Shown: positions 5,253 through 57,301 of the stretch, in pieces
How the letters are laid out: each line of letters opens with the position of its first letter
How positions within the stretch are numbered: the first letter of the stretch is position 1
Assembly: GCA_965209205.1 (NCBI GenBank)
Contig: CBDBQC010000003.1
Location: 897,872 to 961,871 of the forward strand
Origin: Dehalococcoidia bacterium
GTDB lineage: Bacteria; Chloroflexota; Dehalococcoidia; Bin125
Reading direction: 5' to 3'
DNA: 64,000 bases
Made by a program: the position numbers and the translations under genes
Notes under the pieces: generated by a model
The model's database searches: none
Told to the model about the DNA's origin: nothing
The model's input: the letters and a program-made list of their open reading frames with translations, nothing else

Positions 5253-5258
5253 CGCGCG

Positions 5259-7800: not shown

Positions 7801-7937
7801 TTGATGGATACCGGTGGATCTATAGGAGTTGACCGGGGAAACCGCGTCCCGCCACCCTGCGATCTCGCCTATAATCCTCTATACTGCGATGGATACCCGC
7901 GAACCGCGGTTGTGCCGGTGCGCCGCCGGCGCGGCGG

Positions 7938-9260: not shown

Positions 9261-9281
9261 CCTGGGCCCAGGGCCGGGCGG

Positions 9282-10217: not shown

Positions 10218-10416
10218 GGCGTGACACTTTCGGACGGCCCGGCGGTCGCGGGAGGCGGGATCCCGCGCGTCGTCGTGGCCGTGCTTGAAACAATACTAAG
10301 ATAACCGGAATTATCAAGATTGCCGAGCGCGCGATGTAACACTGGGCGATCGCGCCGGAAGACCGCGCGGGTGGCCGCGCCCGTCCGATAGCGACCGCTC
10401 CCCCTAGACTCGCCAC

Positions 10417-23111: not shown

Positions 23112-25703
23112 ATGCGCAACGCATTTTGCGACAGCGACGATCTACACAACGAGGCGGATGTCGAGGCACTCTTCGCCGAGCCGCTGCTTCACGCGCTCGG
23201 CTACGCCGACAATCGAATCCGGCGGAAGGCTGCGATCCAGGAAGTCACACTCCCGACGACTGGTGCTCACGGGGAACGATACCGTCCAGACTACATTCTT
23301 CACGACTCGACCGGACAGTCAGTCGTTGTTGTTGATGCCAAGCACCCGGATGAAGACCCCAGCGACTACCGGTATCAGGTCACCGGTTACGCGCTCCTGA
23401 TCAACCAGCGCCACGAAGACAACCCACTCCGCTACTGCGTACTCACTAACGGACTCAAGACGGAGCTGCTGGAATGGGATCGTGACGGTCCAATCTTGGC
23501 ACTTCGATTCCAGGATTTCGATTCCGGCAATGAGGCTTTGACCGCACTCCGTTCTACCATAGGCTACGGCGTCTTCAACCAAGAACGGCAGGTCAAGGAC
23601 GTAAGACCAAACTACCACCGACCAACGATCAGTGAAATTATCGCGTCGTTCGCCGACGCCCACAACACGATCTGGAAGAAGGAGAAGATCGGTCCGACGA
23701 AGGCGTTTTATGAGTTGGCGAAGCTATTGTTCGTCAAGCTCCGCCAAGACCGGCTAATCCATGAGAAGATCGCGCAAGGGGAGCAGCCTCGCAGAGATGA
23801 CTTCTTCTTCACAGTCGACTGGGTCAGCCGGCAACCGACAGACAACCCGATCGCAGAACCGCTCTTCAGCGCCATTCAGAAGCAAATGGAGGCGGAGATC
23901 ATTGCGAAGGAGAAGAAGCGCATCTTCCTCTCTGGCGAATCGATCAACCTGCGACCATCGACGATCTTGGAGGTTGTGCGGACACTTGAGGAATCTGACC
24001 TCCATGGTATCGATGAGGATCTGAATGGCCGCATGTTCGAGACATTCCTGAACGCGACAGTGCGCGGCAGAGAGCTCGGGCAGTACTTCACGCCTCGACC
24101 AGTAGTCAAGTACATGACGAAGTCAGCTCGCCTGAGTGTCGTCAACCGTCAGTTGCCCCGAGTCATTGATGCATGTTGCGGCAGCGGCGGCTTCCTTATT
24201 GAAGCGCTCGCAATGTTGTCCCAAGCGATCCAGAGCAGTGCCCACCTTACGAACAAAGAGCAAGCTGAACTGCAAGCGCTGCTGGAGAGGGATACTCTCT
24301 ATGGCATCGAAGCGAACGAAGAGATCGGTCGTGTCGCCCGACTCAACATGTACCTGCATGGAGACGGCGGCAGCCGCATCTACATAGCGGATTCACTGGA
24401 CAAAGAGTTGGCCGGCGAGGAGGGCCTGGAGACCGAGCCCCGACAGCAACTCGATGAATTGCGCTCGCAGCTGATCGACAACGGTGTGCGTTTCGACGTG
24501 GCGCTGACGAACCCTCCGTTCAGTATGTCCTACTCCAAGAAGAAAACTGACGAACGGCGGATTCTCCAGCAGTATGCGATCGTCAGCAGCGATACCACGC
24601 ACTCTAACGTGCTGTTCCTGGAACGCTACCATGATTTGTTGGAGGAAGAGGGGGAGCTGCTCACGATCATAGACGACACTGTCCTCAATGGCGTGAATGC
24701 TGCCGAGTTCCGTCGCTTCATCCGCGACAAGTTCATAATCCGGCAAGTGGTGTCACTGCCATTCAATACGTTCTTCCGAGCGCAAGCCAATATCAAGACT
24801 TCCATGCTTCACCTTCGACGACGTCGGCCGGGTGAACGGCAAGGGGACGTCTTCATGGCGATCACGAACAACGTGGGACATGATGATAGCAAGCGCGACA
24901 CCCCACACCGTGACAATCTCCCCGAGGTCGCGAACCTGTTCACCGACTGGGACGAACACGGGGTTGAGCCCAATCTGTTCCGCGAGGCGGACTCCGACGA
25001 GCCGCTGAGTTGTCCACTGCAGGTCTTCGCTGTGCCAGCAGAGGAACTCAGCGCCGACCGCCTTGACGCCTTCTACTACGCACCGGAGTTGCGCAGGCTA
25101 CAGAGACGCTTGGAATCCCAGGCCGACGCTGCTGAGATCGTGCTGAGGACGGGTGCTGAGTTCACCTTGGTGCCGAGTTTGTCGAAGGCGCAGAACGAGG
25201 ACTTACGCGGCACGACTAGGCAATACATCGAGATAACGAGCGTCACGCGCGATGGTATGATCGTGATGCCAACGCAGGATCTCTTCGAGGAGTTGCCGAC
25301 TCGCGGCCAGCTCATGGTCGAGCCGAATGACGTGCTCTTCGCGAAGAACAACAGCTCGCGAGGCACAGCCGTACTCGTGCCGGAGTGGTTCAGTGGCGGG
25401 ATCGCCACGACCGGCTTCATCAACGTTCGGCCCGAGGACGAGGAGGAGGCTCTGATCCTATGGACCGTATTCCGATCGGAAGTCTGGCGGAAGCAGGTTT
25501 ACTACCTCGCGATCACAGCGAGTCAGCCGGAAGTGCGAGAGCATATCTTCCTCGATGAAATGCTCATCCCCTGGCCCGCGACAGAGGAGCAACGCACGAA
25601 GATAGTTGAGAGCGCGCGAGCCATGCTGCGAGCACGTGAGACCGAGAGGCTTGCCGCTGAGGAGAACCGGCGGACGCTCGATGACATGCTGGCCTCAGAC
25701 TGA
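23112..25703 (+). CDS. single-chain Type IIG (MmeI-like) restriction-modification enzyme: N-terminal PD-(D/E)xK (HsdR_N-type) nuclease, gamma-class N6-adenine methyltransferase, C-terminal target-recognition region
   Basis: N-terminus RPDYILHD...VVVVDAKHPDE (D...D-x-K nuclease motif, HsdR_N-like). Motif I VIDACCGSGGFLIEA; motif IV LTNPPFS; ~350-aa C-terminal region of TRD size. GC ~55% against a ~70% background. Confidence 0.7.
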   Translation: MRNAFCDSDDLHNEADVEALFAEPLLHALGYADNRIRRKAAIQEVTLPTTGAHGERYRPDYILHDSTGQSVVVVDAKHPDEDPSDYRYQVTGYALLINQRHEDNPLRYCVLTNGLKTELLEWDRDGPILALRFQDFDSGNEALTALRSTIGYGVFNQERQVKDVRPNYHRPTISEIIASFADAHNTIWKKEKIGPTKAFYELAKLLFVKLRQDRLIHEKIAQGEQPRRDDFFFTVDWVSRQPTDNPIAEPLFSAIQKQMEAEIIAKEKKRIFLSGESINLRPSTILEVVRTLEESDLHGIDEDLNGRMFETFLNATVRGRELGQYFTPRPVVKYMTKSARLSVVNRQLPRVIDACCGSGGFLIEALAMLSQAIQSSAHLTNKEQAELQALLERDTLYGIEANEEIGRVARLNMYLHGDGGSRIYIADSLDKELAGEEGLETEPRQQLDELRSQLIDNGVRFDVALTNPPFSMSYSKKKTDERRILQQYAIVSSDTTHSNVLFLERYHDLLEEEGELLTIIDDTVLNGVNAAEFRRFIRDKFIIRQVVSLPFNTFFRAQANIKTSMLHLRRRRPGERQGDVFMAITNNVGHDDSKRDTPHRDNLPEVANLFTDWDEHGVEPNLFREADSDEPLSCPLQVFAVPAEELSADRLDAFYYAPELRRLQRRLESQADAAEIVLRTGAEFTLVPSLSKAQNEDLRGTTRQYIEITSVTRDGMIVMPTQDLFEELPTRGQLMVEPNDVLFAKNNSSRGTAVLVPEWFSGGIATTGFINVRPEDEEEALILWTVFRSEVWRKQVYYLAITASQPEVREHIFLDEMLIPWPATEEQRTKIVESARAMLRARETERLAAEENRRTLDDMLASD

Positions 25704-29930: not shown

Positions 29931-32174
29931 CTACGTCGTCAGGACGTTGATCTGGTAGGCCTTGTGCATGTCGGCGATCTGCGCGGCGCCGAGCGGCCAG
30001 TCGATATTGGCCGCCGTCGCGTGGTACTGGAAGCGCTCCGTCAGGTAGATGAAGCCCGCCCGCTGGTAGTGCGCGACGTAGAGGTCCTCGATCGCCGCGG
30101 CGCGGTCGTCGGCGTTGACGGCCGACTTCGTGCGCGCGCGCATGTCCGCCAGGTCGTCGTGCGGCGCCAGCGAGTAGGTGCCGCCCGGCGTCGGCGCGAT
30201 GTGCGCGGCGATCATGATCTCCGGCTCGAAGCAGGCGCAGTTCTGCATGAAGAAGAGCCCGGCCCCCTCCGTTTCTGAAGCGGCGGCGTTGCGAGCCGTG
30301 GCGAAGAACTCGCCGGTCGGGTACGACTGCATTTCGAGCTCGACGCCGACGGCCGCCAGATCCTGCTGCAGGACCAGCGCCACCGCGGGGTCGGTCGGGA
30401 TGAAGTCCACCGAGAAGTGGAACGGCGTCGTGAACCCGTCCGGGTAGCCGGCCTCGGCGAGCAGGGCCCGGGCAAGGTCCGGGTCGTACGCGTACGGCCC
30501 GATCGCCTCCAGCGCTTCCCGCGGGTAGAACGCGGCCCCGGCCCAGGCGCCGTACGACACGCCCTCCTGCCCGGTCATCAGGTTGTCGATGATCGCCTGC
30601 TTGTTGATCGCGTGGTTCAGGGCCTTGCGCACCCGCTCGTCCCGGAAGGGATTCGGGATGCCGTTGACCTCCTCGGTCAACAGGTTCGGGAGCAGGTACT
30701 GGTTCGGGTTGCCGGCCCAGCCCAAACCGACGTTGAAGTCCGGGTCGTCCCGGATCGGTTCCACGACGTCCGGGGTCAGGGCGTACGCGACATCGATCTC
30801 GCCCGCCTCCATCCCGGCGATGCGGGAGAGCGGCTCCGGCCGCACGAGGTGGACGTGCCGCCGGGTGGACGTCGCCCCGAGCGGCGCCGGCGTGGGCGAC
30901 CACGGCAGGTGGTAGTCCTCGTTGCGCTCGAAGACGAAGTCGGTGTCTTCGGTGTGGCTGACGAAGCGCATGTTCCCCGTGCCCATGGATGAGGCGTCGA
31001 CGGCCGCGTCTCCCCGCTCCTCGGTGTCCCGCTTCGACATCGTGTAGATGTTGCCCAGGTAGGCGCCCGAGATCGTCGCGTCGGGTTCGTGGGTATTGAT
31101 CGTCCAGTGCAGCTTGTCGGTCTGGCCATAGCCCGCCCAGTGGTGGGCGCCCTGCTGCGTGCGCGCGCTGGCCCAGCCGCCGGGGTGGTCGGACGTCTCG
31201 CCGCCCTGGTGGTACTCGGCGATGTTCCCCACCCGCTCGTACGTGAAGATCATGTCTTCCGCCGTCAACTGCTGGCCGTTGTGGAAGAACACGTTGTCCT
31301 TGACGGTCAGGGCCCAGGTCGTGTCATCGGGGAGTTCCCACTGGACCAGGATCCCCGTGGGATTCCCGGTGTCCGGATCGAAATCCACGGGCCGGTCGAA
31401 CACGCTGTGGGAGTTCTGGTAGTTGACCTGGCTGCCGGAACGATGCGGATCGAGACCGCCGTTGTCGGCCGCCAGGGCGAGCCGCAGGGTGGCCTCCGTG
31501 TCGATCGTCCCGGCGGCGGCGGACGGCGCGTCCTCCTCCGCGGCCATGGTGGCGGCGTCGGCGGCCTCGCGGGCCGCGTCGGCGGCCTCTTCGGCCGCCG
31601 AGACGGCGGCCGCGGCGGTCTCGGCCGCGGCAGCGGACGCCTCCCCCGCGGCGGCAGCGGCGGCAGCCGCGGCATCGGCCGCGGCCTGGGCGGCGGCGGC
31701 AGCGGCGGCGGTGTCCTCGGCGCCCGCCTCGCGGGCGGCGGCGGCGGCGGCCTCGGCGGCATCGGCGGCCGCCTGCGCGACGGCGGCGGCGCCCGCGTCG
31801 CCCGCGGCCCGGGCGGCCTCGGCAGCATCGGCAGCCGCATCGGCGGCCGCCTGGGCGGCTGCGGCCGCCTGTTCGGCGTCATCCGACGCCGCGGCTTCGG
31901 CCGCCAGGGCGGAGGCCGCCTCGGCGGCTTCGGCGGCGCGGCCCGCAGCCTCGGCGGCGTCGCTCGCGGCGGATGCCGCGGCAGCGGCGTCGCCCGCCGC
32001 CGCGTCGATCGCCGACGTATCGACGGCGGCCGGCGCGGCGTCATCGTCGTCGTCGCCGCAGCCGACGAGCGCGAGCCCAGCCGCTCCAACGCCGGCTTTG
32101 GCGCTGGCTCCCAACATGGTGCGACGCGAGATCTTTCGCTGTCGCAGGGTGTTCCAATACTTCGGCGTACTCAT
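29931..32174 (-). CDS. orphan paralogue of the family-5 ABC substrate-binding lipoprotein, with a ~205-aa Ala-rich acidic linker
   Basis: First ~60 codons and the upstream leader are nearly identical at DNA level to the 5259-7667 gene. Same RR/lipobox N-terminus and Ala/Glu/Asp tract; the SBP_5 domain is roughly 40-50% identical. No adjacent permeases; convergent with the ECH genes. Confidence 0.8.
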   Translation of the reverse strand: MSTPKYWNTLRQRKISRRTMLGASAKAGVGAAGLALVGCGDDDDDAAPAAVDTSAIDAAAGDAAAAASAASDAAEAAGRAAEAAEAASALAAEAAASDDAEQAAAAAQAAADAAADAAEAARAAGDAGAAAVAQAAADAAEAAAAAAREAGAEDTAAAAAAAQAAADAAAAAAAAAGEASAAAAETAAAAVSAAEEAADAAREAADAATMAAEEDAPSAAAGTIDTEATLRLALAADNGGLDPHRSGSQVNYQNSHSVFDRPVDFDPDTGNPTGILVQWELPDDTTWALTVKDNVFFHNGQQLTAEDMIFTYERVGNIAEYHQGGETSDHPGGWASARTQQGAHHWAGYGQTDKLHWTINTHEPDATISGAYLGNIYTMSKRDTEERGDAAVDASSMGTGNMRFVSHTEDTDFVFERNEDYHLPWSPTPAPLGATSTRRHVHLVRPEPLSRIAGMEAGEIDVAYALTPDVVEPIRDDPDFNVGLGWAGNPNQYLLPNLLTEEVNGIPNPFRDERVRKALNHAINKQAIIDNLMTGQEGVSYGAWAGAAFYPREALEAIGPYAYDPDLARALLAEAGYPDGFTTPFHFSVDFIPTDPAVALVLQQDLAAVGVELEMQSYPTGEFFATARNAAASETEGAGLFFMQNCACFEPEIMIAAHIAPTPGGTYSLAPHDDLADMRARTKSAVNADDRAAAIEDLYVAHYQRAGFIYLTERFQYHATAANIDWPLGAAQIADMHKAYQINVLTT

Positions 32175-32345
32175 GATCGGTTCCTTTCCGGGAACTACCG
32201 TTGGTCCCCCCGGGGGACCGTCGGGCTGGTGAGCACGCGCAGTATGGCACATCCAATAGAGACTCCCCCCCCCACCCCCCCTATGTCAAGTAAGAAGGAA
32301 ATTATGGGGTTATCCACGGTATTTGCAAAGTTATCCACAGGATTT
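32175..32345 (-). promoter_or_regulatory. Conserved 5' leader/promoter module of SBP paralogue 2, with a C9-A-C7 tract and two consensus DnaA boxes
   Basis: Leader hairpins identical to copy 1 (GTTCCCGGAAAGGAAC; GGTCCCCCCGGGGGACC). An AT-rich patch carries TTATCCACG (~32309) and TTATCCACA (~32331) as direct repeats 13 nt apart. Confidence 0.5.
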
Positions 32346-36759: not shown

Positions 36760-38076
36760 TCACGTGCACATCCGTCGCACGATCTCGTAGGTCAGCTCGA
36801 CGCCCATGTTGAGGTTCTCGACCGTCAGGAATTCGTCGTTGCCGTGGAAGCCCGCCGCCTCCTCGGGGCTCAGCAGGCAGGGGATGAAGCCGTAGGCGGG
36901 GATGCCCTTGGCGCGCAGGAAGCGATTGTCGGTGCCGCCGGCGCACAGGTTGGGCGCCACCACCGCATCCTCCGAGGCCTGCTTCAGCACCGACTCGATC
37001 GTGCGGTATAACTCCGTGTCCCAGGGGATCGGCTCGGGCACAGCCTGGCCCCAGTCGGTGTAGAAGCCCACCTCGACCCGCGGGTCGTCGACCACCGCCG
37101 CCACCTCCCGCCGCCACGCCTCGCGATCCTGGCTGGGCAGCAGCCGGCAGTCGATCACGGCCGTGCTCTCCGCCGGGATCACGTTGGCCTTGATGCCGCT
37201 GCGGATCATCGTGATGTTGAGCGTGTTCTGGAACGCCGCCTGCTGCACCGGGCTGCGCCGGATCAGCGCCTCCAACTCGGCCTCCGACGCCGTGGCCGGC
37301 ATCAGCCCCTCGTCCTGCAGCCGCTCGATCGTGTAGCGCGTCTCGGGAATGAATTCGAGCGGACGCTCCCAGTCGGCCAGGCGCTGCAGCGCGCGCGTCA
37401 GGTGCACCGCCGAGTTGTCGGCGTGCGGCCGGCTGCCGTGTCCCGGCGTGCCCACCGCCCGCAACTCCAGCCAGCACATCGTCTTCTCGTTCGTCGCGAC
37501 GTTGAACAGCTCCACGTCCTGCCCCAGGAAGCGCGACGTCCCGGAGCCCCCCTCGCTCAGCTCGAACTCCACGTCGACCAACTCCGGGTGCCGCTCCGAC
37601 AGCCACTGCATGCCCCAAACGCTGCCCGCCTCCTCGTCGGGCACGGCGCAGAACACCAGGTCGCGGCGCAGGGGCGCCCCCTGCCGCTTCAGCAGCAGCA
37701 TCGTCAGCAGCTGCATCACCCCCGCGCCCTTCATGTCCACCGCCCCGCGGCCGTAGATGCGGCCCTCCTCCACCAGCCCCTCGAAGGCCGGCTTCGTCCA
37801 GTACGACTCCTCGACGGGCACCACGTCGGTGTGGTTGCAGAGCATCATCGGGCGCTTGCTGCCGTCGCCGGGCAGCGTCGCCAGCAGGATGTCGCGGCCC
37901 GGCTGCGGCTCCAGGTAGGTGCAGTCGAAGCCCTCCGCCGCCAGCAGGTCGCCCAGGAAGTGCGCCGCCGGCGCCTCCCGCCCCGGCGGGTTCGACGTGT
38001 CGATGCGCAGGTAGCGCGTCAGCACGTCGAGCGCCTCCGCGTGCACCGCCGCCCAGTCGATGGGGGTTGGGGTCAT
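36760..38076 (-). CDS. M20-family metallopeptidase (ArgE/DapE/ACY1/CPG2-like)
   Basis: HTDVVP, GRGAVDMKG and ...PDEEAGS... metal-binding motifs. Start at MTPTPIDW with RBS GGAGAA. Confidence 0.8.
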   Translation of the reverse strand: MTPTPIDWAAVHAEALDVLTRYLRIDTSNPPGREAPAAHFLGDLLAAEGFDCTYLEPQPGRDILLATLPGDGSKRPMMLCNHTDVVPVEESYWTKPAFEGLVEEGRIYGRGAVDMKGAGVMQLLTMLLLKRQGAPLRRDLVFCAVPDEEAGSVWGMQWLSERHPELVDVEFELSEGGSGTSRFLGQDVELFNVATNEKTMCWLELRAVGTPGHGSRPHADNSAVHLTRALQRLADWERPLEFIPETRYTIERLQDEGLMPATASEAELEALIRRSPVQQAAFQNTLNITMIRSGIKANVIPAESTAVIDCRLLPSQDREAWRREVAAVVDDPRVEVGFYTDWGQAVPEPIPWDTELYRTIESVLKQASEDAVVAPNLCAGGTDNRFLRAKGIPAYGFIPCLLSPEEAAGFHGNDEFLTVENLNMGVELTYEIVRRMCT

Positions 38077-38152
38077 GCCGTCGTTCTCCGTTGGTCGCTG
38101 TGGTCGGCCCGCTGCCCGCGACGCTACCACCATCCGCGTCCGCGGGAGAGCG

Positions 38153-38977
38153 TCACTCGGTGAACCCAGGGAGACGCCTTTGCCCCGTGGGCTCCACCCG
38201 ACTGATCTTTCTGAAGAAATCCGTGCCGCGGGGATTCTTGCTGGCGAAGACGAGGTGATAGATGGTCGATCGCTTCGTGTTCAGGATGCGGCTGTCGTCA
38301 TCGACGTGCGAGTAGTTGATGCCCTTGAGTTGGCGTTCATACATGTCGAGCAACGCGCGGGTGATCGATGCTGTGGGCTCATCGCGGAGCGCGAGGTACT
38401 CGTCAGTGCCCATGAAACGCTCAAGGTCCGATCCCTTCCCGAAGCCGGGTTGATAGAGGAACCGCTTGGCGAAGTTCGTCATGAATGTGACGATCAGGTC
38501 GAGTGGGATCTCCGCCGAGAGCCTCCGGACGGACTCGAAACTGATCTGATATCCGAATGGATCGAGGACCGCCAGGCCGAGGGTTCCGCCGCCAGGCCCG
38601 CGGGGAAAGAGGAACTCGCGGGCTCTCGCCGGTGCCTCGTTGCAGTCCAGGCACTCGACTCGCACTCGCCCAGGATCCTCGTCTGCGGTCCTGGCCTTCA
38701 GCGCTTCGACGACAGCCGGGTCGGAGTCGCTCAGGAACACCTTGGCGAACGGGGCCTTCACTGCCAGCAGCGCCGAGCCGCGTGATTCGTCACCCGAGTC
38801 CTTGTTGATGTTGATTCCCGGCCCAGCGAAGAGATCCGCGTAGACAAGGTCCGTCCACCTGTCCTTCATGCCCTTCGTGAAGATGTCGATATAGCGCTCG
38901 ACGTAGAAGAGCTTGTCTTCGCTCCACGGCTCGACCTCATGCGCGGCATGGCCGTCCGAGGCCTCAACCAGCGTCAC
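38153..38977 (-). CDS. TcmP-like 'three-Cys-motif partner' protein (uncharacterised)
   Basis: 274 aa. GTG start overlaps the stop of the upstream DUF5131 gene (GTGA). No recognisable catalytic family; contains a DLFAGPG Gly-rich motif. GC ~57%, clearly below background. Pairing with a DUF5131/three-Cys protein is the defining genomic context of the TcmP family (from memory of TIGRFAM/NCBI family descriptions). Confidence 0.5.
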   Translation of the reverse strand: MTLVEASDGHAAHEVEPWSEDKLFYVERYIDIFTKGMKDRWTDLVYADLFAGPGININKDSGDESRGSALLAVKAPFAKVFLSDSDPAVVEALKARTADEDPGRVRVECLDCNEAPARAREFLFPRGPGGGTLGLAVLDPFGYQISFESVRRLSAEIPLDLIVTFMTNFAKRFLYQPGFGKGSDLERFMGTDEYLALRDEPTASITRALLDMYERQLKGINYSHVDDDSRILNTKRSTIYHLVFASKNPRGTDFFRKISRVEPTGQRRLPGFTE

Positions 38978-39711
38978 GCTTGCGCTCCCACCGCCGGCAG
39001 CTCATCCCACGTTCGACCATCGAGCACACGGCCCGACGCCTTCTTGCCGCGGCGCACGCCCGCCTCATCATGGGCGCCCCACTGCTTGAAGAAGAACGGC
39101 ACGCCCGCCGCCGCGCACTGATCCCGCACCGAGGTCGCCCACGACAGCTGCATCGGTCGTGCGCCGGGACCGCTCTCGCCGCCGACGATCACCCAATCGA
39201 TCTTCGCGAGGTCCAGGTCCAGCGGCCCCAGCAACGGCTCGCAGGACAGGAACCGCACGGCCGCCGGCATCGCCCGCAACTCCGCGATCCGCGACGTCCA
39301 GCGCTGGTTCTCGACCGACACGCCCATCCACACGTTGTCGGGCCAGGGCAGCCGATCGGCCAGCGCACGCGCCCGCTCCGGGCGCTTCGTCAGGACCTGG
39401 AAGACGTGCCAGTGCGCCCGCCGCATGACGTCGAATACCTCCGCGACGTACTCGTCCGGCACGCCCTCGTGGAACAGGTCGCTCATGCTGTTGACGAAGA
39501 TCACGCGCGGCCGCTTCCAGGCCAGCGGCTGCTGCAACCGCTCCGGACGCAGCGTCAGGTCGAAGCCGGGCTCGTAGGGATGGCCGGGCACGCCGCGGAA
39601 TCGCTCCGCGAACGTCTCCGCGTAGCAGTGGGCGCATCCGGGCGACACCTTGGTGCAGCCCGTGACGGGGTTCCACGTCATCTGGCTCCACTCGATCTTC
39701 GTCTTGCCCAT
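38974..39711 (-). CDS. DUF5131 family protein (phage Gp37/Gp68-like, three-Cys motif)
   Basis: MGKTKIEWSQMTWNPVTGCTKVSPGCAHCYAETFAERF... gives a C-x7-C-x2-C cluster near the N-terminus, a hallmark of Gp37/Gp68 (PF07505) proteins. RBS GGAGGA. Confidence 0.65.
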   Translation of the reverse strand: MGKTKIEWSQMTWNPVTGCTKVSPGCAHCYAETFAERFRGVPGHPYEPGFDLTLRPERLQQPLAWKRPRVIFVNSMSDLFHEGVPDEYVAEVFDVMRRAHWHVFQVLTKRPERARALADRLPWPDNVWMGVSVENQRWTSRIAELRAMPAAVRFLSCEPLLGPLDLDLAKIDWVIVGGESGPGARPMQLSWATSVRDQCAAAGVPFFFKQWGAHDEAGVRRGKKASGRVLDGRTWDELPAVGAQA

Positions 39712-39732
39712 CGCGGATCCTCCCCGGGACAA

Positions 39733-39744
39733 GAACATACGTTC
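39733..39744. promoter_or_regulatory. Cheo/LexA-type SOS box GAACATACGTTC
   Basis: Perfect GAAC-N4-GTTC inverted repeat (context aAGAACATACGTTCCt), ~20 nt upstream of the DUF5131 start and ~137 nt upstream of the divergent lhr start. A TTATCCACT DnaA-box-like 9-mer lies ~25 nt further on (~39767). Coordinates +/-2. Confidence 0.5.
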
Positions 39745-39880
39745 CTGTCGTGCGTCTGTCCACATGTTATCCACTACTGCCGACACCGTATCCTGTCGTG
39801 GTCGTCCCGCTCGATCGTCGCCCTGCGACCATGGGCCGCGCAGGTCCCCCGACGCCTGCTACAGTGACCGACTAGAACAC

Positions 39881-42800
39881 ATGGTCCAAACCACCGAGCC
39901 CCCCGCTGCCACTCCTCCGCCCGACGTGGCCCCGGTCCTGCGCGACTTCCACCCCGCCGTCCAGGCCTGGTTCCTGCGCCACTTCGCCGCCCCCACCGAC
40001 GCTCAGACCGACGGCTGGCCGCACATCCGCGCCCGCCGCGACGTGCTGATCGCCGCGCCCACCGGGTCGGGCAAGACGCTGGCCGCCTTCCTGGCCGGCA
40101 TCGACGCCCTCATCCGCAAGGCCGAGGCCGGGCTGCTCGACGACCAGATCGAGATCCTCTACGTCTCGCCGCTCAAGGCGCTTGGGGCCGACATCCATCG
40201 CAACCTGGAGGCGCCGCTGGCGGAGATCAACGCCATCGCGGCCGAGCTGGGTTACGAGCTGCCGCCCATCCGCGTCGCCGTGCGCAGCGGCGACACGACC
40301 CCCTCGCAGCGGCAGACGATCACCAGGCACCCGCCCCACATCCTGATCACCACCCCCGAGTCGCTCTACCTGATGCTCACGGCGGCCAAGGCCCGCCCCA
40401 CCCTGCGGCACGTCCGCACCCTCATCGTCGACGAGATCCACGCCCTCGTCCGCGACCGGCGCGGCAGCCATATGGCGCTCAGCGTCGCCCGGCTCGACCA
40501 CGTTGCCGACGAGCGCCCGGCCCGCATCGGCCTCTCGGCCACGCAGCGGCCGATCGACGAGATCGCGCGCTTCCTCGTCGGGCCGGAGCGCGCCGCCGGG
40601 GACGGCGCCCCCGACGTTGGGCCCGGCTGCGTCATCGTCGACCGCGGCCACCAGCGCGACCTCGACCTCAGCATCGAGCTGCCGAACTCGGAGATGACGG
40701 CCGTCGCCTCGCACGAGCAGTGGGCCGAGGTCTACGACCGCCTGGCCGCGCTGATCGCCGGCCACCGCACGACGCTGATCTTCGTCAACACGCGCCGCCT
40801 GGCCGAGCGCGTCGCCCACCACCTGGCCGAGCGGGTCGGCGAGGAGCACGTCGCCAGCCACCACGGCTCGCTCTCGAGGGAGCGCCGCCTGCAGATGGAG
40901 CAGCGCCTCAAGAGCGGCGACCTGCGCGCGCTCGTCGCGACCGCCTCGCTGGAGCTGGGTATCGACATCGGCTCCATCGACCTCGTCTGCCAGCTGGCCT
41001 CGCCCCGCGCCATCAGCACTTTCCTGCAGCGCGTCGGCCGCTCCGGGCACGCCCTGGGCCTGACGCCGCGCGGCAAGCTCTTCCCCACCACCCGCGACGA
41101 GCTGGTCGAGTGCGCCGCCCTGGTGCGCGCCGTGCGCGCCGGCCGCCTCGACCGCGTCCAGCAGCCCGTCGCCCCGCTCGACGTGCTGGCGCAGCAGATC
41201 GTCGCCGAGACCGCCTGCGAGGACTGGCCGGCCGACGCCCTCTTCGGCCTCGTGCGCCGCGCCGCCCCCTACCGCGATCTCGCCCGCGACGACTTCGACG
41301 ACGTGGTGGCCATGCTGCGCGACGGCGTCGGCGAGAGCGGCGGCCGCGCCCACCCCCTCATCCACCACGACCGCATCAACGGCGTCATCCGCGCCCGCCG
41401 CGGCGCGCGCATGAAGGCGCTCACCAACGGCGGCACGATCCCGGAGTTGGGCGACTACCGCGTCGTCGCCGAGCCCGACGGCACGTTCGTCGGGACGGTC
41501 AACGAGGACTGGGCCATCGAGAGCATGGCCGGCGACATCTTCCTGCTCGGCACGACCTCCTGGCGCATCAAGCGCGTCGAATCCGGGACCGTGCGCGTCG
41601 AGAACGCGCAGGGCGCGCCGCCCACGATCCCCTTCTGGCTGGGCGAGGCGCCCGGCCGCACCGTCGAGCTCTCGGCCGAGGTGAGCGCCCTGCGGCGCGA
41701 CATCGCCGCCGGCCTCGGCGATCTCGAGGCGACGACCGAGCTGCTGCGCGAGGAGTGCGGCCTCGACGCCCTCGGCGCCGCGCAGCTCCTGGACTACGTG
41801 CGCGCGGCCAGCGTCGCGCTCGGCGTCGTGCCCTCCGATACCGACGTCGTGTTCGAGCGCTTCTTCGACGAGGCGGGCGACCAGCATCTCGTCGTGCACG
41901 CCCCCTTCGGCGCGCGGATCAACCGCGCCTGGGGCCTCGCCCTGCGCAAGCGCTTCTGCGTGCGCTTCGACTTCGAGCTGCAGGCCGCCGCCAACGATGA
42001 CGCCATCGTGCTCTCGATCGGCCCCGCGCAGTCGTTCCCGCTCGAGGAGGTCTTCGGCTACCTCACGGCGGCCGCCGCCGAACCGGCGCTGTCGCAGGCC
42101 ATCCTCTACGTGCCGCAGTGGGGCACGCGCTGGCGCTGGAACGCGACCCGCGCCCTCGCCGTCGAGCGGCAGCGCGGCGGCAAGAAGGTGCCGCCGCAAC
42201 TCCAGCGCATGCGCGCCGACGACCTCCTGGCCGCCGTGTTCCCGGCCCAGGTCGGTTGCCAGGAGAACGTTACCGGCCCCCTCGACTACCCCGACCACCC
42301 GCTCGTCCGGCAGTCGCGCGAGGACTGCCTGCGCGAGTGGATGGACACCGACGGCCTCGTCGCCACGCTGGCCCGCATCGAGGCCGGCGCGATCGCGCTG
42401 CACGCGCGCGACAGCGTCGAGCCCTCGCCCATGGCGCACGAGATCCTCAACGGCAAGCCGTACACCTTCCTCGACGACGCCCCCCTCGAGGAGCGGCGCA
42501 CGCGCGCCGTCATGCTGCGCCACGCCCTGCCCGGCGACGCGCGCGACCTCGCCGCCCTCGACCCCGCCGCCATCGCCCGCGTGCGCGAGGAGGCTTGGCC
42601 GGTCCCCCGCGACGCCGAGGAGGTCCACGATGTCCTGCTCTCGCTCGTCGTGCTCTCCGACCGCCACGTGGCCGGCTGGGAGCCCTGGCTCGACGACCTC
42701 GCCGGGCGGGGCCGGGCCGCCGTCGTCGAGCCCGCCGGCAGCCTCCCCGGAGCGGCGCCCCGGCACTGGTTCGCCGCCGAGAACCTCCCGCTCATCGAGT

Positions 42801-44395
42801 TGCTGTTCCCGGGCGGGCGCATCGCCCCGCCGCTCTCGCTCCCGTTTGGCGCCGCCGCCGCCGTCGCCGACCGCGACGACGCCCGCGCGCGCCTGCTGCG
42901 CGGCCACTGCGAGGTGCTGGGCCCCGTCACCGCCGCGGCGCTCGCGGGCCGCTGCGGCCTGCGGGCCGAGGACGTCGAGCGCGGGCTCGTCCAGGTCGAG
43001 GCCGCCGGTCATGTGCTGCGCGGTCGCTTCACGCCGTCCGGCGTCGCGAGCGGCCCGCTGCCGACCCCCGGAGCTCCGGGCATCCCCCCCGACGCCCCCG
43101 ATGAGTTCTGCGACCGCCGTCTCCTGGCGCGCATCCATCGCTACACCCTCGACTTCCTGCGCAAGCAGATCGAGCCCGTCGGCGCGCGCGACTTCATGCG
43201 CTTCCTGCTGCGCTGGCAGCACTGCGCGCCCGACACCCGGCTGACCGGCAAGCAGGGCCTGCGCGCCGTGGTCGAGCGGCTGCAGGGCTTCGAGGCCCCC
43301 GCCGTCGCCTGGGAGCGCGACCTGCTCCCCGCCCGCCTGACCGACTACGACCCCGCCTGGCTCGACGAGCTCTGCCTCGACGGCACTCTGACCTGGGGCC
43401 GCCTGAGCCCCCGCAAGTCGAGCCGGGACGCCGGCCTGCCCGCCAGCCCGTCGCGCGTCATGCCCGTCAGCCTGGGCCTGCGCGCCGACTTCCCCCTGCT
43501 GCGGGCCGCCGCCGCCGGCCCCCCGGCCGACGCGACCGACGACGACGCGGCGGCGCCTCCTGGCGAGCCCGTCGCGGGCGCGTCGCGCGTCGTGCTCGAC
43601 TTGCTGCGCGAGCGCGGGGCGCTCTTCTTCGACGAGATCGTCAACGGCAGCCGCCGCCTGGCCAGCGAGGTGGAGGCCGCCCTGCGCGACCTCGTCGCCC
43701 GGGGGCTCGTCCACGCCGACGGCTACGAGGGCCTACGCCACCTGGCCGGCAAGCGCCGCGGGAGTGCGGGACGGCGTCGGGGGCGCTCGCGCTACGCCGG
43801 CGGCCGTTTCGCCGGCGGCGGTCCCGCCGGGCGCTGGGCCGCCGTCGGCGCCGCCCCCGCCGGCCTCGACGCCGAGGACCTGGCCCAAGGCACGGCCGAG
43901 ATCCTGCTGGCCCGCTACGGCGTCATCTTCCGCGACCTCCTGGCCCGCGAGAGCATCACCGTCCCCTGGCGCAACGTCCTCAAGGCGCTGCGACGCATGG
44001 AGGCCCGCGGCCAGGTGCGCGGCGGTCGCTTCGTGGCCGGATTCGTCGGCGAGCAGTACGCCCTGCCCGAGGCCGTCGAGGCGCTGCGCGCCGTCCGCCG
44101 CCGCGAGCAGGGCGGCGAGCGCGTCTACCTCAGCGCCGTCGACCCCTGCAACCTCGTCGGCATCGTCCTGCCCGGCGGCCGCATCACCGCGCGCGCCGGC
44201 GACGCCCTGACCCTGGTCGACGGCGCCCTCCCCGACGATGCGGAGACCGTGGGGTGCATCCCCTGGCCGCACCGCCCCGACCAGGTCGTCGCGACCCCCC
44301 GCGCCGACCTCGCCCCGGCCGCCCCCCGGCCCGGCGCGACGCCCGGCGGCAAGGCCGCGCGCCGCGCCGTCAATCGCGTCACCGGCCGTTCCTGA
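39881..44395 (+). CDS. lhr: ATP-dependent DNA helicase Lhr (large helicase-related, long form)
   Basis: 1504 aa. Walker A APTGSGKTL, DEIH box, helicase C motifs, then the Lhr-specific WH/beta-barrel region and a long C-terminal extension. Confidence 0.85.
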   Translation: MVQTTEPPAATPPPDVAPVLRDFHPAVQAWFLRHFAAPTDAQTDGWPHIRARRDVLIAAPTGSGKTLAAFLAGIDALIRKAEAGLLDDQIEILYVSPLKALGADIHRNLEAPLAEINAIAAELGYELPPIRVAVRSGDTTPSQRQTITRHPPHILITTPESLYLMLTAAKARPTLRHVRTLIVDEIHALVRDRRGSHMALSVARLDHVADERPARIGLSATQRPIDEIARFLVGPERAAGDGAPDVGPGCVIVDRGHQRDLDLSIELPNSEMTAVASHEQWAEVYDRLAALIAGHRTTLIFVNTRRLAERVAHHLAERVGEEHVASHHGSLSRERRLQMEQRLKSGDLRALVATASLELGIDIGSIDLVCQLASPRAISTFLQRVGRSGHALGLTPRGKLFPTTRDELVECAALVRAVRAGRLDRVQQPVAPLDVLAQQIVAETACEDWPADALFGLVRRAAPYRDLARDDFDDVVAMLRDGVGESGGRAHPLIHHDRINGVIRARRGARMKALTNGGTIPELGDYRVVAEPDGTFVGTVNEDWAIESMAGDIFLLGTTSWRIKRVESGTVRVENAQGAPPTIPFWLGEAPGRTVELSAEVSALRRDIAAGLGDLEATTELLREECGLDALGAAQLLDYVRAASVALGVVPSDTDVVFERFFDEAGDQHLVVHAPFGARINRAWGLALRKRFCVRFDFELQAAANDDAIVLSIGPAQSFPLEEVFGYLTAAAAEPALSQAILYVPQWGTRWRWNATRALAVERQRGGKKVPPQLQRMRADDLLAAVFPAQVGCQENVTGPLDYPDHPLVRQSREDCLREWMDTDGLVATLARIEAGAIALHARDSVEPSPMAHEILNGKPYTFLDDAPLEERRTRAVMLRHALPGDARDLAALDPAAIARVREEAWPVPRDAEEVHDVLLSLVVLSDRHVAGWEPWLDDLAGRGRAAVVEPAGSLPGAAPRHWFAAENLPLIELLFPGGRIAPPLSLPFGAAAAVADRDDARARLLRGHCEVLGPVTAAALAGRCGLRAEDVERGLVQVEAAGHVLRGRFTPSGVASGPLPTPGAPGIPPDAPDEFCDRRLLARIHRYTLDFLRKQIEPVGARDFMRFLLRWQHCAPDTRLTGKQGLRAVVERLQGFEAPAVAWERDLLPARLTDYDPAWLDELCLDGTLTWGRLSPRKSSRDAGLPASPSRVMPVSLGLRADFPLLRAAAAGPPADATDDDAAAPPGEPVAGASRVVLDLLRERGALFFDEIVNGSRRLASEVEAALRDLVARGLVHADGYEGLRHLAGKRRGSAGRRRGRSRYAGGRFAGGGPAGRWAAVGAAPAGLDAEDLAQGTAEILLARYGVIFRDLLARESITVPWRNVLKALRRMEARGQVRGGRFVAGFVGEQYALPEAVEALRAVRRREQGGERVYLSAVDPCNLVGIVLPGGRITARAGDALTLVDGALPDDAETVGCIPWPHRPDQVVATPRADLAPAAPRPGATPGGKAARRAVNRVTGRS

Positions 44396-52647: not shown

Positions 52648-53181
52648 GTGCTACGTCGTGACCACGCCCTCGCCTACGCGCCGCTCGAGACCGCCCTGGG
52701 CCGAGTCCTGGTGGGCTATCGCGGCGATACCGTCCTGTCGTCCAGCCTCACGCAGACGCCGGCCCAGTTCGCCTCCGCCCTCGGCGAGCGGCACGGCCGT
52801 CCCCCCGAGGCCCACGCCGGTCTGCCCGATGGGCTGCGCGAGCCCGTCCGCACCGCCGTCGAGGGCGGCCCCTGCGTCGTCGATATCGACCTCGCCCCGC
52901 TCACGCCCTTCCAGCAGAAGGTCCTGCGCGAGGTCGTCGCCATCCCGCGCGGGCAAACCTGCACGTACGGCGAACTCGCCGAGCGCGTCGGCGCCCCCCG
53001 CGCGGCCCGCGCCGTTGGCTCCGCCCTGGCGCGCAACCCCGTGCCGCTGCTGATCCCCTGCCACCGCGTCGTCCGCTCCGGCGGCGACGTCGGGAAGTAC
53101 GGCATGGGCGGCGCGCAGATCAAGAAACGGCTGCTGCGCCGCGAAGGCGCGCTGAGCGCCGCCGGCCGCGTCGTCGCCTGA
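52648..53181 (+). CDS. ogt: methylated-DNA--protein-cysteine methyltransferase (Ogt/MGMT)
   Basis: Active-site PCHRVV motif and HTH region ...TCTYGELAERVGAPRAARAVGSALARNPV. Confidence 0.85.
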   Translation: MLRRDHALAYAPLETALGRVLVGYRGDTVLSSSLTQTPAQFASALGERHGRPPEAHAGLPDGLREPVRTAVEGGPCVVDIDLAPLTPFQQKVLREVVAIPRGQTCTYGELAERVGAPRAARAVGSALARNPVPLLIPCHRVVRSGGDVGKYGMGGAQIKKRLLRREGALSAAGRVVA

Positions 53182-55811: not shown

Positions 55812-56363
55812 CTAGTCCGGCTCGATGAAGATGACCTTGACCGGGAACGTCGGAAACTGCCGCTGCAGGCCGATGATGTCGGTCACGAGCATCTCGCCCC
55901 GTCCTACACCCGACGACATTTGGGCTGCGAGGCGATGTGACGGGACGATTTCGACGCCAACATCGGCCTCATCCTGACGGTAGAAGTACTCCAGTTTCGC
56001 CATGTCGTAGAACATCGCGAAATACTTGCCAAGCTGCACCTCGACCAAGACTCGATCACGCGCGAAGTCGATCTGCTTGCGACCGGTCCGCAACCGGGAC
56101 GTGTCCCAGTCGGGAACGTTCGGCTTCACGGATCGCTTCAACTCCTGGAAGCCGCGCGCGTTGAACTCGGAGCGGAGCGCAGAGTTGATGGCCGTCGGAT
56201 CGAAGAGCATGCGACCTTTCTTCGTCTTCTCCTTGCTCTTCTTGGTCCGGAAGTCGCTGCCGATCGCCGCGATAACTTCGTGGATCGCCGCGTCGATGTC
56301 CGGGAACCGCGACCGGAGGATCTCGCTGCCGCCGAGATGCGAGTACTCGTAGACGGCCTTCAT
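55812..56363 (-). CDS. Type II restriction endonuclease, BglII/BstYI family
   Basis: 183 aa. MLFDPTAINSALRSEF... and DFARDRVLVEVQLGKY parallel BglII LIFDPVGTNQYIKDEL... and DFGKRDTLVEVQFSNY. ATG overlaps the methyltransferase stop (ATGA). GC ~58%. Confidence 0.7.
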   Translation of the reverse strand: MKAVYEYSHLGGSEILRSRFPDIDAAIHEVIAAIGSDFRTKKSKEKTKKGRMLFDPTAINSALRSEFNARGFQELKRSVKPNVPDWDTSRLRTGRKQIDFARDRVLVEVQLGKYFAMFYDMAKLEYFYRQDEADVGVEIVPSHRLAAQMSSGVGRGEMLVTDIIGLQRQFPTFPVKVIFIEPD

Positions 56364-57301
56364 GGCCCGCCTGGAGGACTGGCAAGCTCCAGCCGGAGCA
56401 GGCTGTCAACCTGGGGGGGCTGGTACACAGCTCTCGTCATGGGCCTGGTCCGCAGCCTACCTTCGTAAGCCTCCTTGGCTCGTTTCTTCCCGATCTCGTA
56501 GTACTCGGCCTCGATTTCTGCACCGACGGCGCGGCGCTGATGCCGCAGGGCGCCGGCGGCGGTCGAGGCGACGCCCATGAACGGGTCAACGACGAGATCA
56601 CCGATTCTTGTCATGCTCAAAACGAGACGCTCAACCAGCTCGATAGGGAACTGGCAGGGGTGAGGCGTCTTCTCAACGTGGTTGTTCTTCACGTTCGGGA
56701 ACACCCAGACATCGCCGGGGTTCTTTCCCAGCGGGTTCCCCGACAGTTGCCCCGCCCGGGGACCCTTGAAGTGGCGCTTATTCGGGTACTTCTGCGGCGT
56801 CCGAATGGGGTCGACGTCGAACAGGTAGTCGTCCCCCTTGGTGAACCAATTGATGGTCTCGTAGCGGCCGGAGAGTCGCTTGGTGCAGTGCAGCCCGTGC
56901 TCGAAGTGCCAGACGATCCGGTTCCGCATCTTGAGTCCGAGTTCCCGGAACACGGGGAACAGCAGCGCATCGAGCGGCACGATCTCGCCACGGTCGACGT
57001 GGTTCCCGACCTGCCAGCAGATCGACCCGTCGTCGGCTAGAACACGGACGGATTCCGTGATGACGGCGCGCTGGAACTCGACATAGTCGTCCAGCGAAGA
57101 GCGGTCCTCGTAGGGCTTGCCGATGTTGTACGGCGGGGAGGTCATCACGAGGCGCGCAGCCCCGTCGGGCAGCTGAGCGAGGAGTTCCAGGCAGTCGCCG
57201 TTGAAGAACGAGAAGTCGGCCTCAGGGTCGAAGTCGTCGGCGAACCGATAGGCTGCCCTCACGGGCACTTCCGCAGGTGGCTGCATCCTGAACTCCGGCA
57301 C
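56360..57301 (-). CDS. beta-class DNA methyltransferase, probable N4-cytosine (m4C) specificity, cognate to the BglII-like endonuclease
   Basis: Motif IV TSPPY precedes motif I VVDPFMGVASTAAGA (beta-class order). SPPY is typical of N4C methyltransferases (BglII and BamHI methylases are m4C). Start is GTG, or the internal ATG at ~57286. Confidence 0.75.
   Translation of the reverse strand: MPEFRMQPPAEVPVRAAYRFADDFDPEADFSFFNGDCLELLAQLPDGAARLVMTSPPYNIGKPYEDRSSLDDYVEFQRAVITESVRVLADDGSICWQVGNHVDRGEIVPLDALLFPVFRELGLKMRNRIVWHFEHGLHCTKRLSGRYETINWFTKGDDYLFDVDPIRTPQKYPNKRHFKGPRAGQLSGNPLGKNPGDVWVFPNVKNNHVEKTPHPCQFPIELVERLVLSMTRIGDLVVDPFMGVASTAAGALRHQRRAVGAEIEAEYYEIGKKRAKEAYEGRLRTRPMTRAVYQPPQVDSLLRLELASPPGGP

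Follow-up and report, generated by a model that had tools for sequence, protein, structure and literature searches.

What do two overlapping genes of obscure families, set back to back with the helicase gene lhr in the 64 kb stretch of DNA analyzed here (the window), do for their host, and does the LexA-type box in front of them place them in the SOS response? Our best explanation, to which we give a probability of roughly 55%, is that they form a LexA-repressed (SOS) operon whose two products make up a two-component radical-SAM enzyme with damaged nucleic acid, most likely DNA, as its target. The features concerned are these:

38153-38977, minus strand: TcmP (three-Cys-motif partner) gene, 274 aa, GTG start
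38974-39711, minus strand: DUF5131 gene (COG4422; 'phage Gp37/Gp68'), 245 aa, ATG at 39711
39718-39725, minus strand: Shine-Dalgarno sequence GGGGAGGA, 6 nt before the start codon of DUF5131, kept in orthologous loci
39733-39744, no strand assigned: predicted LexA-type operator GAACATACGTTC (GAAC-N4-GTTC), perfect, 22 nt upstream of the DUF5131 ATG and overlapping the -10 element
39734-39762, minus strand: sigma-70-like promoter of the DUF5131-TcmP operon (-35 TGGACA at 39757-39762, 17-nt spacer, -10 TATGTT at 39734-39739)
39875-39886, plus strand: imperfect GAAC-ACAT-GGTC box that overlaps the start codon of lhr; a -10-like TACAGT (39860-39865) lies 9 nt upstream of it
39881-44395, plus strand: lhr (large helicase-related), 1504 aa, divergent from the pair across a common 169-bp control region
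52648-53181: MGMT gene, 13 kb from the pair

Both minus-strand genes have good codon bias, and the TcmP GTG start shares 4 nt (GTGA) with the DUF5131 TGA stop, an overlap that an earlier reading of the sequence alone had described and that is plain in the DNA. The family assignments of that sequence-only reading likewise stood up to HMM searches. DUF5131 matches PF07505 over its full length (residues 3-239 of 245; 362.8 bits against a cutoff of 28.9, E=1.1e-108), and its partner matches TIGR04474 (TcmP) over residues 17-258 (127.2 bits against a cutoff of 53). The families are large: DUF5131 has at least 8000 database homologues at E<=1e-10, and TcmP comprises about 8000 clusters at 50% identity. 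An exact-sequence look-up of the window's TcmP returned no database record, and PDB sequence searches with the two proteins matched no solved structure.

The three N-terminal cysteines of DUF5131 had been recognized before, with the spacing C-x7-C-x2-C; the actual arrangement is C19-x6-C26-x2-C29. These cysteines are invariant in 37 homologues. Also invariant are Y30, directly after C29, and a GGESG motif (G177-G-E-S-G181), which could be a GGE-type SAM motif. Spore photoproduct lyase (SPL) likewise has a tyrosine directly after its third cluster cysteine. Profile searches returned no PF04055 match at E<0.01 and no PF20903 (SPL) match; the canonical CX3CX2C motif is absent, TIGR04471 is matched partially (79.9 bits against a cutoff of 355), and the only PHROGs match is to a family of unknown function. 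The predicted fold is a radical-SAM partial (beta/alpha) TIM-barrel core, with the Cys loop modeled at low confidence, and SPL is the top structural match of the model, at 10% sequence identity. Judged by this model, DUF5131 is a radical-SAM-superfamily-like enzyme whose shape is closest to SPL. Identity to the window's protein is 72-80% in 118 of the 120 best database homologues (60% and 93% in the other two) and 55-60% across phyla, a pattern of conservation that fits a housekeeping-type enzyme.

For TcmP, the predicted structure is a class I SAM-methyltransferase Rossmann fold, and the earlier guess that DLFAGPG is SAM motif I was therefore right. Motif I reads D48-LFAGPG and motif IV D139-P-F-G; G52, G54, D139 and P140 are invariant in 30 homologues, and both motifs are retained in distant homologues of 355 and 398 aa, including the PDC-M30A type. 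DLFAGPG resembles the RsmD-type DxFxGxG, and D-P-F-G resembles the DPFG of Trm1 and the DPPY/F group. TcmP thus apparently keeps a competent methyltransferase site. Its nearest solved folds (RlmJ, Trm1, RsmD-like HI0767 and Rv2966c; 13-16% identity) are RNA methyltransferases, not DNA methyltransferases. It has the class I Rossmann fold in common with the RlmJ/Trm1/RsmD-type exocyclic-amine N-methyltransferases but differs from them in being always paired with a radical-SAM enzyme and in having its own N-terminal hairpin-helix. Searches with TcmP gave no Pfam match of any kind, no NCBIfam methyltransferase match and no PHROGs match.

The partnership itself extends far beyond the window. A DUF5131 gene (63 loci) or an SPL-family radical-SAM gene (14 loci) adjoins TcmP in 77 of 80 genome loci, the other three lying at contig ends. 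These alternative partners match PF20903 at E values of 1e-18 to 5e-25, and TcmP is fused to its partner in L038 (606 aa) and P0170 (634 aa). The functional pairing proposed earlier finds ample support here, as does the precedent then named for DUF5131, since SPL is both its top structural match and the Pfam family of TcmP's other partners.

The promoter that drives the pair carries the candidate operator. Between positions 38000 and 40000, TGGACA-17-TATGTT is the only promoter-like site, against 0.2 expected, and it is kept in L001, L082, L083, L085, L091 and L093. The GAAC-N4-GTTC box near the DUF5131 start, to which the sequence-only reading had drawn attention as perfect and shared with the divergent lhr, is the sole match in the window. 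With 0.51 matches expected by chance and at least one in 40 of 100 shuffles, uniqueness on this scale is unremarkable; the box is notable because it lies inside the region's only sigma-70-like promoter and is conserved in orthologous loci. On the other side of the control region, GAAC-ACAT-GGTC is possibly a second, weak LexA site for lhr, the product of which matches DEAD, Helicase_C, WH_Lhr, DEAD_assoc, WH3_Lhr and WH4_Lhr. Near the lhr start, AGAACACATG and TA(C/G)AGT are kept in the same six loci as the pair's promoter. Because one arm of this second box is mismatched and the site is partly coding, we only infer its role. An Rfam scan of the whole window matched no RNA family, so the control region holds no known structured RNA. 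A PafBC/RecA-independent promoter was considered and rejected, as the upstream TGTCGGCA-N8-TAACAT is similar but L001 does not conserve it; PafBC is a regulator of actinobacteria.

Comparison with other genomes argues for control by LexA. Of 23 related Chloroflexota loci, 17 have a perfect GAAC-N4-GTTC upstream of DUF5131 and 22 have one with no more than a single mismatch, and its spacers and flanks vary among these loci. The background frequency of the motif is about 0.024 per kb, a figure in which the promoter sites of these loci are counted. The lexA promoters of L086 and L087 contain CGAACATATGTAC, and a perfect GAAC-N4-GTTC precedes a lexA-tcmP operon in L018 and L022, which in L018 runs on into an SPL-family gene; the lexA upstream regions of L005 and L011 have no clear box. 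According to PMC4951493, which cites Fernandez de Henestrosa 2002, this type of motif has been published for Chloroflexi. Membership of the DUF5131-TcmP operon in the LexA (SOS) regulon of Chloroflexota, suspected in the sequence-only reading, is supported as a putative assignment by these comparisons. Another repeat, TTCGC-N6-TTCGC, occupies the spacer between -35 and -10 in Acidobacteriota and 'delta' MAGs. It precedes TcmP-DUF5131 pairs and also operons of Y-family polymerase, TcmP, SPL and DnaE2, and of the 19 copies in 1.02 Mb, 15 are at these promoters; the lexA upstream region of L054 (Binatia) shows no clear match to it.

Across several phyla the module has SOS genes (lexA, Y-family polymerase, dnaE2) as neighbors. 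In five loci (L004, L005, L010, L011 and L054) lexA lies at most 6 kb from the module. An SPL-shaped, putative Fe-S enzyme and a methyltransferase-shaped partner behind a conserved LexA operator are very probably a DNA-damage-induced enzyme pair, and one that occurs in thousands of bacteria.

We envisage that, without damage, LexA would block RNA polymerase at the operon promoter, and that RecA-stimulated cleavage of LexA would derepress the operon and possibly lhr too. DUF5131 would carry a [4Fe-4S] cluster on C19, C26 and C29 and cleave SAM to a 5'-deoxyadenosyl radical, which would take hydrogen from a DNA lesion as in SPL. TcmP would bind the nucleic acid and flip the target base into its methyltransferase-type pocket, and would then either present the base to DUF5131 or methylate an exocyclic amine within the same reaction. 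Direct reversal or processing of a replication-blocking lesion would be the result, with DUF5131 as the conserved catalytic core and TcmP as an exchangeable targeting or co-catalytic subunit. A sharper version, which we offer tentatively and regard as possible rather than likely, is that a DUF5131/SPL-like radical-SAM protein and TcmP form a widespread, previously unrecognized two-subunit direct-reversal enzyme of SOS DNA repair, in which TcmP flips and holds the damaged base and the radical-SAM subunit repairs it by hydrogen-atom abstraction. If true, such an enzyme would deal with methylene-bridged adducts, N-alkyl adducts and similar lesions without any need for oxygen, and would explain 'SplB-like' genes as core SOS genes of non-sporulating bacteria.

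The history of the locus bears on a different interpretation. Both genes are depressed in GC, as had been noticed: the window as a whole has 71.2%, TcmP 61.5% and DUF5131 69.6%, the last two in place of the ~57% and ~67% first given. Horizontal acquisition of the pair had been suggested on this ground, which appears to hold for one gene only. The lhr<>DUF5131 arrangement is found in L001, L082-L085, L091/L092 and L093 (Lhr identity 77-94%), and lhr adjoins the module independently in the Terriglobia locus L062. Throughout the clade DUF5131 has a vertical link with lhr, and turnover is confined to the TcmP slot. A recent gain of the whole pair by the window genome is ruled out, the locus being syntenic in L082-L085. 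The slot is empty in L001 and L093 and holds a PDC-M30A-type gene in L091. L093 retains a 49-aa TcmP remnant, and L001, the partner-less relative, differs by the absence of exactly the TcmP ORF; because no remnant is detectable there, we infer loss in L001 from the wider distribution of the pair. The GC content of the TcmP slot is below that of its flanks in 68 of 68 loci, and TcmP is 80-85% identical where its neighbors are 91-97% identical, pointing to faster evolution. Such turnover is more typical of mobile or defense genes. DUF5131 also remains intact where no TcmP adjoins it, so pairing may be optional.

These properties of the slot (swapping or loss at one chromosomal locus, low GC, rapid change) would be expected if the pair were a mobile DNA-modification or anti-phage defense module of the kind listed by PADLOC as PDC-M41/M30, a reading that we consider unlikely yet worth weighing in full. 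TcmP would then be a diversifying methyltransferase-like subunit with specificity for a sequence or target, DUF5131 would place or erase a radical-derived mark on DNA or else damage foreign DNA, and LexA control would be the SOS wiring common in mobile elements. The PADLOC entries comprise the same two families, with DUF5131 as the B subunit and the TcmP type as the A subunit, and the adjacent window genes match both models (M41B 358, M41A 64, M30B 348 and M30A 28 bits). The pair is a defense candidate there on account of some copies that lie within RM or BREX loci; what defined the entries was a location inside BREX, DISARM or type I RM loci (bioRxiv 10.1101/2024.01.29.577857). Eco57I-type RM methylases adjoin TcmP-SPL modules in L026, L032 and L033, and IS elements sit between the two genes in L008 and L009. 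In temperate actinophages DUF5131 lies beside methyltransferases, in lysogeny or early regions, and the integrase and repressor genes of Gordonia phage Fairfaxidum enclose genes for DUF5131 and a TcmP-like methyltransferase. A TcmP gene of S. meliloti is also listed beside the Hna defense helicase (PMC12445080).

Against this stands the setting of the window's copy, which, unlike those behind the PDC entries, lies outside a defense context and is SOS-wired. In the window and its relatives the genes lie on the chromosome in conserved order, with lhr and metabolic genes on either side. Directly downstream are genes for an M20 peptidase, a hydrolase, an aminotransferase and a luciferase-like protein, and the nearest RM genes are 13-16 kb off, so the position is not a defense island. 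Nor is it the cluster of repair genes pictured in the sequence-only reading: lhr is adjacent, but MGMT is 13 kb away, and tblastn with a Y-family query together with signature-motif scans of the window found neither DinB nor any other Y-family polymerase, nor an SRAP gene. The conservation of DUF5131 is unusual for a defense effector, the module recurs within lexA operons and Y-family-pol/dnaE2 cassettes together with their operators, and TcmP itself is absent from the 50,697 phage genomes searched. PDC-M41 and PDC-M30 are, furthermore, candidates only in their source paper (bioRxiv 10.1101/2024.01.29.577857), and we caution against scoring them as phage defense by default.

The polymerase cassettes raise another alternative, that the pair is a damage-induced mutagenesis helper that alters bases (e.g., a thymine or an exocyclic amine) and so makes or marks substrates for co-encoded translesion polymerases. 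The module runs between a Y-family polymerase and dnaE2 in the order Y-family polymerase, TcmP, SPL-like, DnaE2 in L028, L039 and L057, and lies directly upstream of dnaE2 in L025 (TcmP, SPL, DnaE2) and L029 (TcmP, DUF5131, DnaE2). The apparently competent methyltransferase site of TcmP is consistent with such a role, and Aravind's group has made a similar proposal for the DUF4130/radical-SAM/UDG SOS pair (PMC3765255). However, no translesion polymerase is nearby in the window or in most Chloroflexota loci, and the strong conservation of DUF5131 without such partners argues for an autonomous activity; we regard this reading as improbable.

More improbable still is a stress-induced pair that modifies rRNA or tRNA, with TcmP methylating an exocyclic amine like RlmJ, Trm1 and RsmD and DUF5131 supplying radical chemistry like RlmN and Cfr: although TcmP's best structural neighbors are RNA methyltransferases and one phage DUF5131 was deposited as 'RNA methyltransferase', a shared class I methyltransferase fold does not determine what is methylated, DUF5131's top match and TcmP's alternative partners are of the DNA-acting SPL type, and the genomic associations are all with DNA-damage genes (lexA, polymerases, lhr).

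A damage-induced radical-SAM pair has precedents. Reports of LexA regulation of SplB-like radical-SAM genes go back to at least 2002 and cover many phyla, with EMSA or ChIP validation in some (PMC4951493, PMC8565304, PMC9380542, PMC3765255), and their repair substrate is a long-standing loose end. Like the window's gene, these SplB-like (COG1533, PF20903) SOS genes encode LexA-controlled, SPL-like radical-SAM proteins in non-sporulating bacteria; they are linked to imuB/dnaE2 and SRAP networks (PMC4951493, PMC8565304, PMC3765255), and in 14 loci the family has TcmP as its direct partner. The window's DUF5131 differs in belonging to COG4422, in being about 100 aa shorter, in having CX6CX2C in place of CX3CX2C and in matching neither PF20903 nor PF04055. 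The literature on SplB-like SOS genes (PMC4951493, PMC8565304, PMC3765255) makes no mention of a methyltransferase-fold partner. Among the papers listed by our literature search, 'DUF5131' occurs in a single one, which only classifies it, 'TcmP' in this sense occurs in two gene lists, and PDC-M41, PDC-M30, TIGR04474 and PF07505 do not occur. The earlier description of the system as undescribed is thus apt for its function and SOS link, whereas the pair itself is on record (TIGRFAMs; PADLOC PDC-M41/PDC-M30). The locus adds a second SPL-like family, DUF5131, which in Chloroflexota is wired into the SOS response in the same way; a methyltransferase-fold partner, TcmP, that had been overlooked, is common to DUF5131 and SPL-family enzymes and is sometimes fused to them; and the occurrence of the module within lexA operons and cassettes of translesion polymerases. 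The SOS loose end thereby becomes a testable biochemical question.

Relative to SPL itself (B. subtilis/Geobacillus SplB, PDB 4fhc), DUF5131 falls in a neighboring RadicalSAM.org megacluster and lacks the extra C-terminal region. SPL acts alone, is sporulation-regulated and repairs 5-thyminyl-5,6-dihydrothymine, whereas DUF5131 has a partner protein. In this respect the closer parallel is TIGR03916/TIGR03915 (radical SAM plus DUF4130/UDG), also a two-gene module of a radical-SAM protein and a base-recognizing partner. It is found in the LexA regulons of several phyla, with a proposed function only (PMC4951493, PMC8565304, PMC3765255), and it differs from DUF5131-TcmP in that its partner has a uracil-DNA-glycosylase-type fold and its radical-SAM protein belongs to another family.

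The gene pair beside lhr consists of two minus-strand genes, both with genuine coding signal.

Features of the DUF5131-TcmP locus (window coordinates)
38153-38977, minus strand: TcmP gene, 274 aa, GTG start
38974-39711, minus strand: DUF5131 gene, 245 aa, ATG at 39711
6 nt upstream of the DUF5131 ATG, minus strand: Shine-Dalgarno sequence GGGGAGGA
39733-39744: candidate LexA operator GAACATACGTTC, the sole GAAC-N4-GTTC within the 64 kb window
39881-44395, divergent from DUF5131 across a 169-bp spacer: lhr, with all Lhr domains found

Both family assignments of the sequence-only reading hold. The DUF5131/PF07505 match spans the full length of the first protein (E=1.1e-108), and the second is TcmP by TIGR04474 (127 bits against a curated cutoff of 53); a Pfam search returned no family for it. 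The proteins also match the PADLOC phage-defence candidate models PDC-M41A/B and PDC-M30A/B. The GTG start of TcmP overlaps the TGA stop of DUF5131 (GTGA), as had been claimed, making translational coupling plausible. The cysteine motif, given earlier as C-x7-C-x2-C, is C-x6-C-x2-C, because the invariant residues are C19, C26 and C29. A proposed repair neighbourhood survives in part: lhr is adjacent, but the MGMT gene lies 13 kb from the pair, and neither a Y-family polymerase nor an SRAP gene was detected within the 64 kb window. The downstream neighbors of TcmP are metabolic genes.

A perfect GAAC-N4-GTTC near the DUF5131 start had been noticed, and its conservation is apparent in relatives. 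One box per window is not significant alone, because 40% of shuffled windows contain at least one; its significance rests instead on its position inside a promoter, the only sigma-70-like one found in 38000-40000 (TGGACA-17-TATGTT, minus strand), whose -10 element falls within the box. Among 23 non-redundant Chloroflexota loci with a DUF5131 at least 69% identical to that of the window, 17 carry a perfect box 20-60 nt upstream of the start codon and 5 more a one-mismatch version (GTAC, GAAT or GTTG arm) at the same site, while the 4-nt spacers and flanks vary from locus to locus. The background of perfect motifs is 0.024 per kb (868 kb, first 81 loci), a count that includes these promoter sites. 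In another Dehalococcoidia group, of lower GC, the form is GCAC/GTAC-N4-GTTC, directly behind TTGACA. According to PMC4951493 (citing Fernandez de Henestrosa 2002), GAAC-N4-GTTC is the LexA motif type of Firmicutes and Actinobacteria, with variations reported from Chloroflexi including Dehalococcoides. In related genomes lexA itself is preceded by CGAACATATGTAC (L086, L087) or by a perfect box (L018, L022). Box position, conservation, the published motif type and the same motif before related lexA genes together make LexA control of the operon highly probable, as judged from comparative sequence. Control may extend to lhr, whose start codon is overlapped by a conserved near-box (GAAC-ACAT-GGTC); a TACAGT hexamer (39860-39865) lies 9 nt upstream of this near-box. 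An element resembling the mycobacterial RecA-independent (PafBC) damage promoter (TGTCGGCA-N8-TAACAT; 39779-39800, minus strand) is not kept in L001 (TGTGGACA...TAACCT) and is probably due to chance.

Links to the SOS response recur in other genomes. In L018 and L022, lexA lies immediately upstream of tcmP, the L018 operon running on into a gene of the spore photoproduct lyase (SPL) family and the L022 contig stopping right after tcmP. Acidobacteriota-type loci L028, L039 and L057 have the order Y-family polymerase, TcmP, SPL-like, DnaE2; L025 has TcmP, SPL, DnaE2, and L029 TcmP, DUF5131, DnaE2. The pair lies within about 6 kb of lexA in L004, L005, L010 and L011, and 1.3 kb from it in L054. 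A HicA/HicB toxin-antitoxin pair sits between lexA and DUF5131-TcmP in the Dehalococcoidia locus L086 (2411-3083) and is missing in syntenic L087. In Acidobacteriota and 'delta-proteobacterial' MAGs, a TTCGC-N6-TTCGC direct repeat occupies the -35/-10 spacer (consensus TTGACtTTCGCTTTnTATTCGCcTAyAAT) before TcmP-DUF5131 pairs and the Y-family-polymerase/TcmP/SPL/DnaE2 operons; the repeat occurs 19 times in 1.02 Mb, 15 of them at these promoters. It shares an 11-nt period with the Alphaproteobacteria LexA box GTTC-N7-GTTC and is a candidate lineage-specific SOS operator.

TTCGC-N6-TTCGC promoter sites (locus, position)
L017 5900; L024 5881; L027 5880; L028 4531; L031 5902
L036 244; L037 5870; L039 1650; L041 5893; L057 4353
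L066 5187; L067 5198; L069 5202; L078 5196; L079 5182

A TcmP profile search yielded 7,989 representatives of 50%-identity clusters (E<=1e-3). The pairing is conserved: DUF5131 adjoins TcmP, in either gene order, in 63 of 80 TcmP-carrying GTDB genomes. At 14 of the 80 loci its place next to TcmP is taken by a radical-SAM protein with the canonical CX3CX2C motif that belongs to the Pfam SPL family, and the other 3 loci are situated at contig ends. Two independent fusions, L038 (606 aa; 5986-7806) and P0170 (634 aa), join an N-terminal TcmP to a C-terminal SPL-family radical-SAM domain and are potential single-chain constructs for biochemical work. Adjacency and fusions together argue that TcmP and an SPL-like radical-SAM enzyme function as one unit. 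In low-GC Dehalococcoidia (L020, L026, L030, L032, L033, L038, L040, L049), TcmP-SPL is flanked by genes for two SAM by-product salvage enzymes, mtnA (IF-2B family) on one side and an MTA/5'-deoxyadenosine-type phosphorylase (PNP_UDP_1) on the other, or by just one of the two if its counterpart is missing or beyond the contig end; this link could be functional (5'-deoxyadenosine disposal) or coincidental.

The best-supported model, to which we assign a probability of roughly 0.55, is an SOS-controlled two-component DNA-damage enzyme. In this model a LexA-repressed operon would encode a pair whose target is damaged DNA, with DUF5131 as the catalytic, SPL-like radical-SAM subunit and TcmP as a methyltransferase-fold subunit that binds both SAM and a flipped base. 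Comparative evidence for the regulation and the partnership is strong; the chemistry, substrate and complex we infer. SplB-like radical-SAM genes (COG1533) occur in LexA regulons of many phyla, in some with EMSA or ChIP backing (PMC4951493, PMC8565304, PMC9380542, PMC3765255), and these papers make no mention of DUF5131 or a methyltransferase partner. The gene families are already catalogued and SOS-regulated SPL-like genes already known; new are the DUF5131 version, the methyltransferase-fold partner common to both, and its position in SOS cassettes.

A mobile modification or defence module is a less likely reading, kept alive by phage, PADLOC and Eco57I associations. DUF5131 is present in 180 of 50,697 phage genomes, in which tblastn detected no TcmP; in Gordonia phage Fairfaxidum, gp42 (DUF5131) is convergent with gp43, a distant TcmP homologue, between integrase and repressor genes, and in other actinophages DUF5131 lies near DNA methyltransferases. 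The PADLOC PDC entries are candidates picked because some of their copies lie within BREX, DISARM or type I RM loci (bioRxiv 10.1101/2024.01.29.577857), and some TcmP-SPL modules adjoin Eco57I-type enzymes (an RM methylase in L026, L032 and L033). A role as a mutagenesis helper seems improbable, and RNA modification slightly more so.

Horizontal acquisition, previously suggested for both genes, fits the partner slot and not DUF5131, because the slot varies while DUF5131 is very conserved.

Occupants of the slot after DUF5131
Window, L082, L083/84, L085: TcmP
L091/92: convergent 355-aa PDC-M30A-type TcmP homologue (hhalign 98.4%)
L093: TcmP remnant, 49 aa
L001: unrelated sequence of ~100 nt in the exact place of the TcmP ORF

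DUF5131 identity is 72-80% in 118 of the 120 best database homologues (60% and 93% in the remaining two) and 55-60% between phyla. TcmP is 80-85% identical where neighboring proteins reach 91-97%. GC content is 61.5% for TcmP, 69.6% for DUF5131 and 71.2% for the window (GC3 0.80, 0.91 and, in neighbors, ~0.96); it falls below the flanks for TcmP in 68/68 loci (mean difference 10 points) and for DUF5131 in 62/68 (4.5 points). IS elements have inserted exactly between the genes in L008 (2310-5972; a DDE_Tnp_1 transposase flanked by two inverted DDE_3 copies) and L009 (4638-5912; an IS110-family transposase). The order lhr, divergent DUF5131, M20 peptidase is kept in relatives with Lhr 77-94% identical to the window's. 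A second, independent Lhr adjacency outside this clade occurs in L062 (Terriglobia; 5153-11225), where DUF5131, TcmP and Lhr follow one another on a single strand.

Elsewhere in the window, 23112-25703 (plus strand) encodes an 863-aa Eco57I/N6_Mtase type IIG-like restriction-modification protein; the surrounding stretch is likely a horizontally acquired island, since no ORF there reaches a GC3 of 0.80. A type II RM pair at 55812-57301 (minus strand), a BglII-like restriction endonuclease (183 aa) and an N6/N4 DNA methylase (313 aa), has a GC3 of 0.82-0.84 against ~0.95 in its neighbors. GC rises to 82-86% at 31400-32200, a possible low-complexity linker in the N-terminal part of the family 5 solute-binding protein encoded at 29931-32252 (minus strand).
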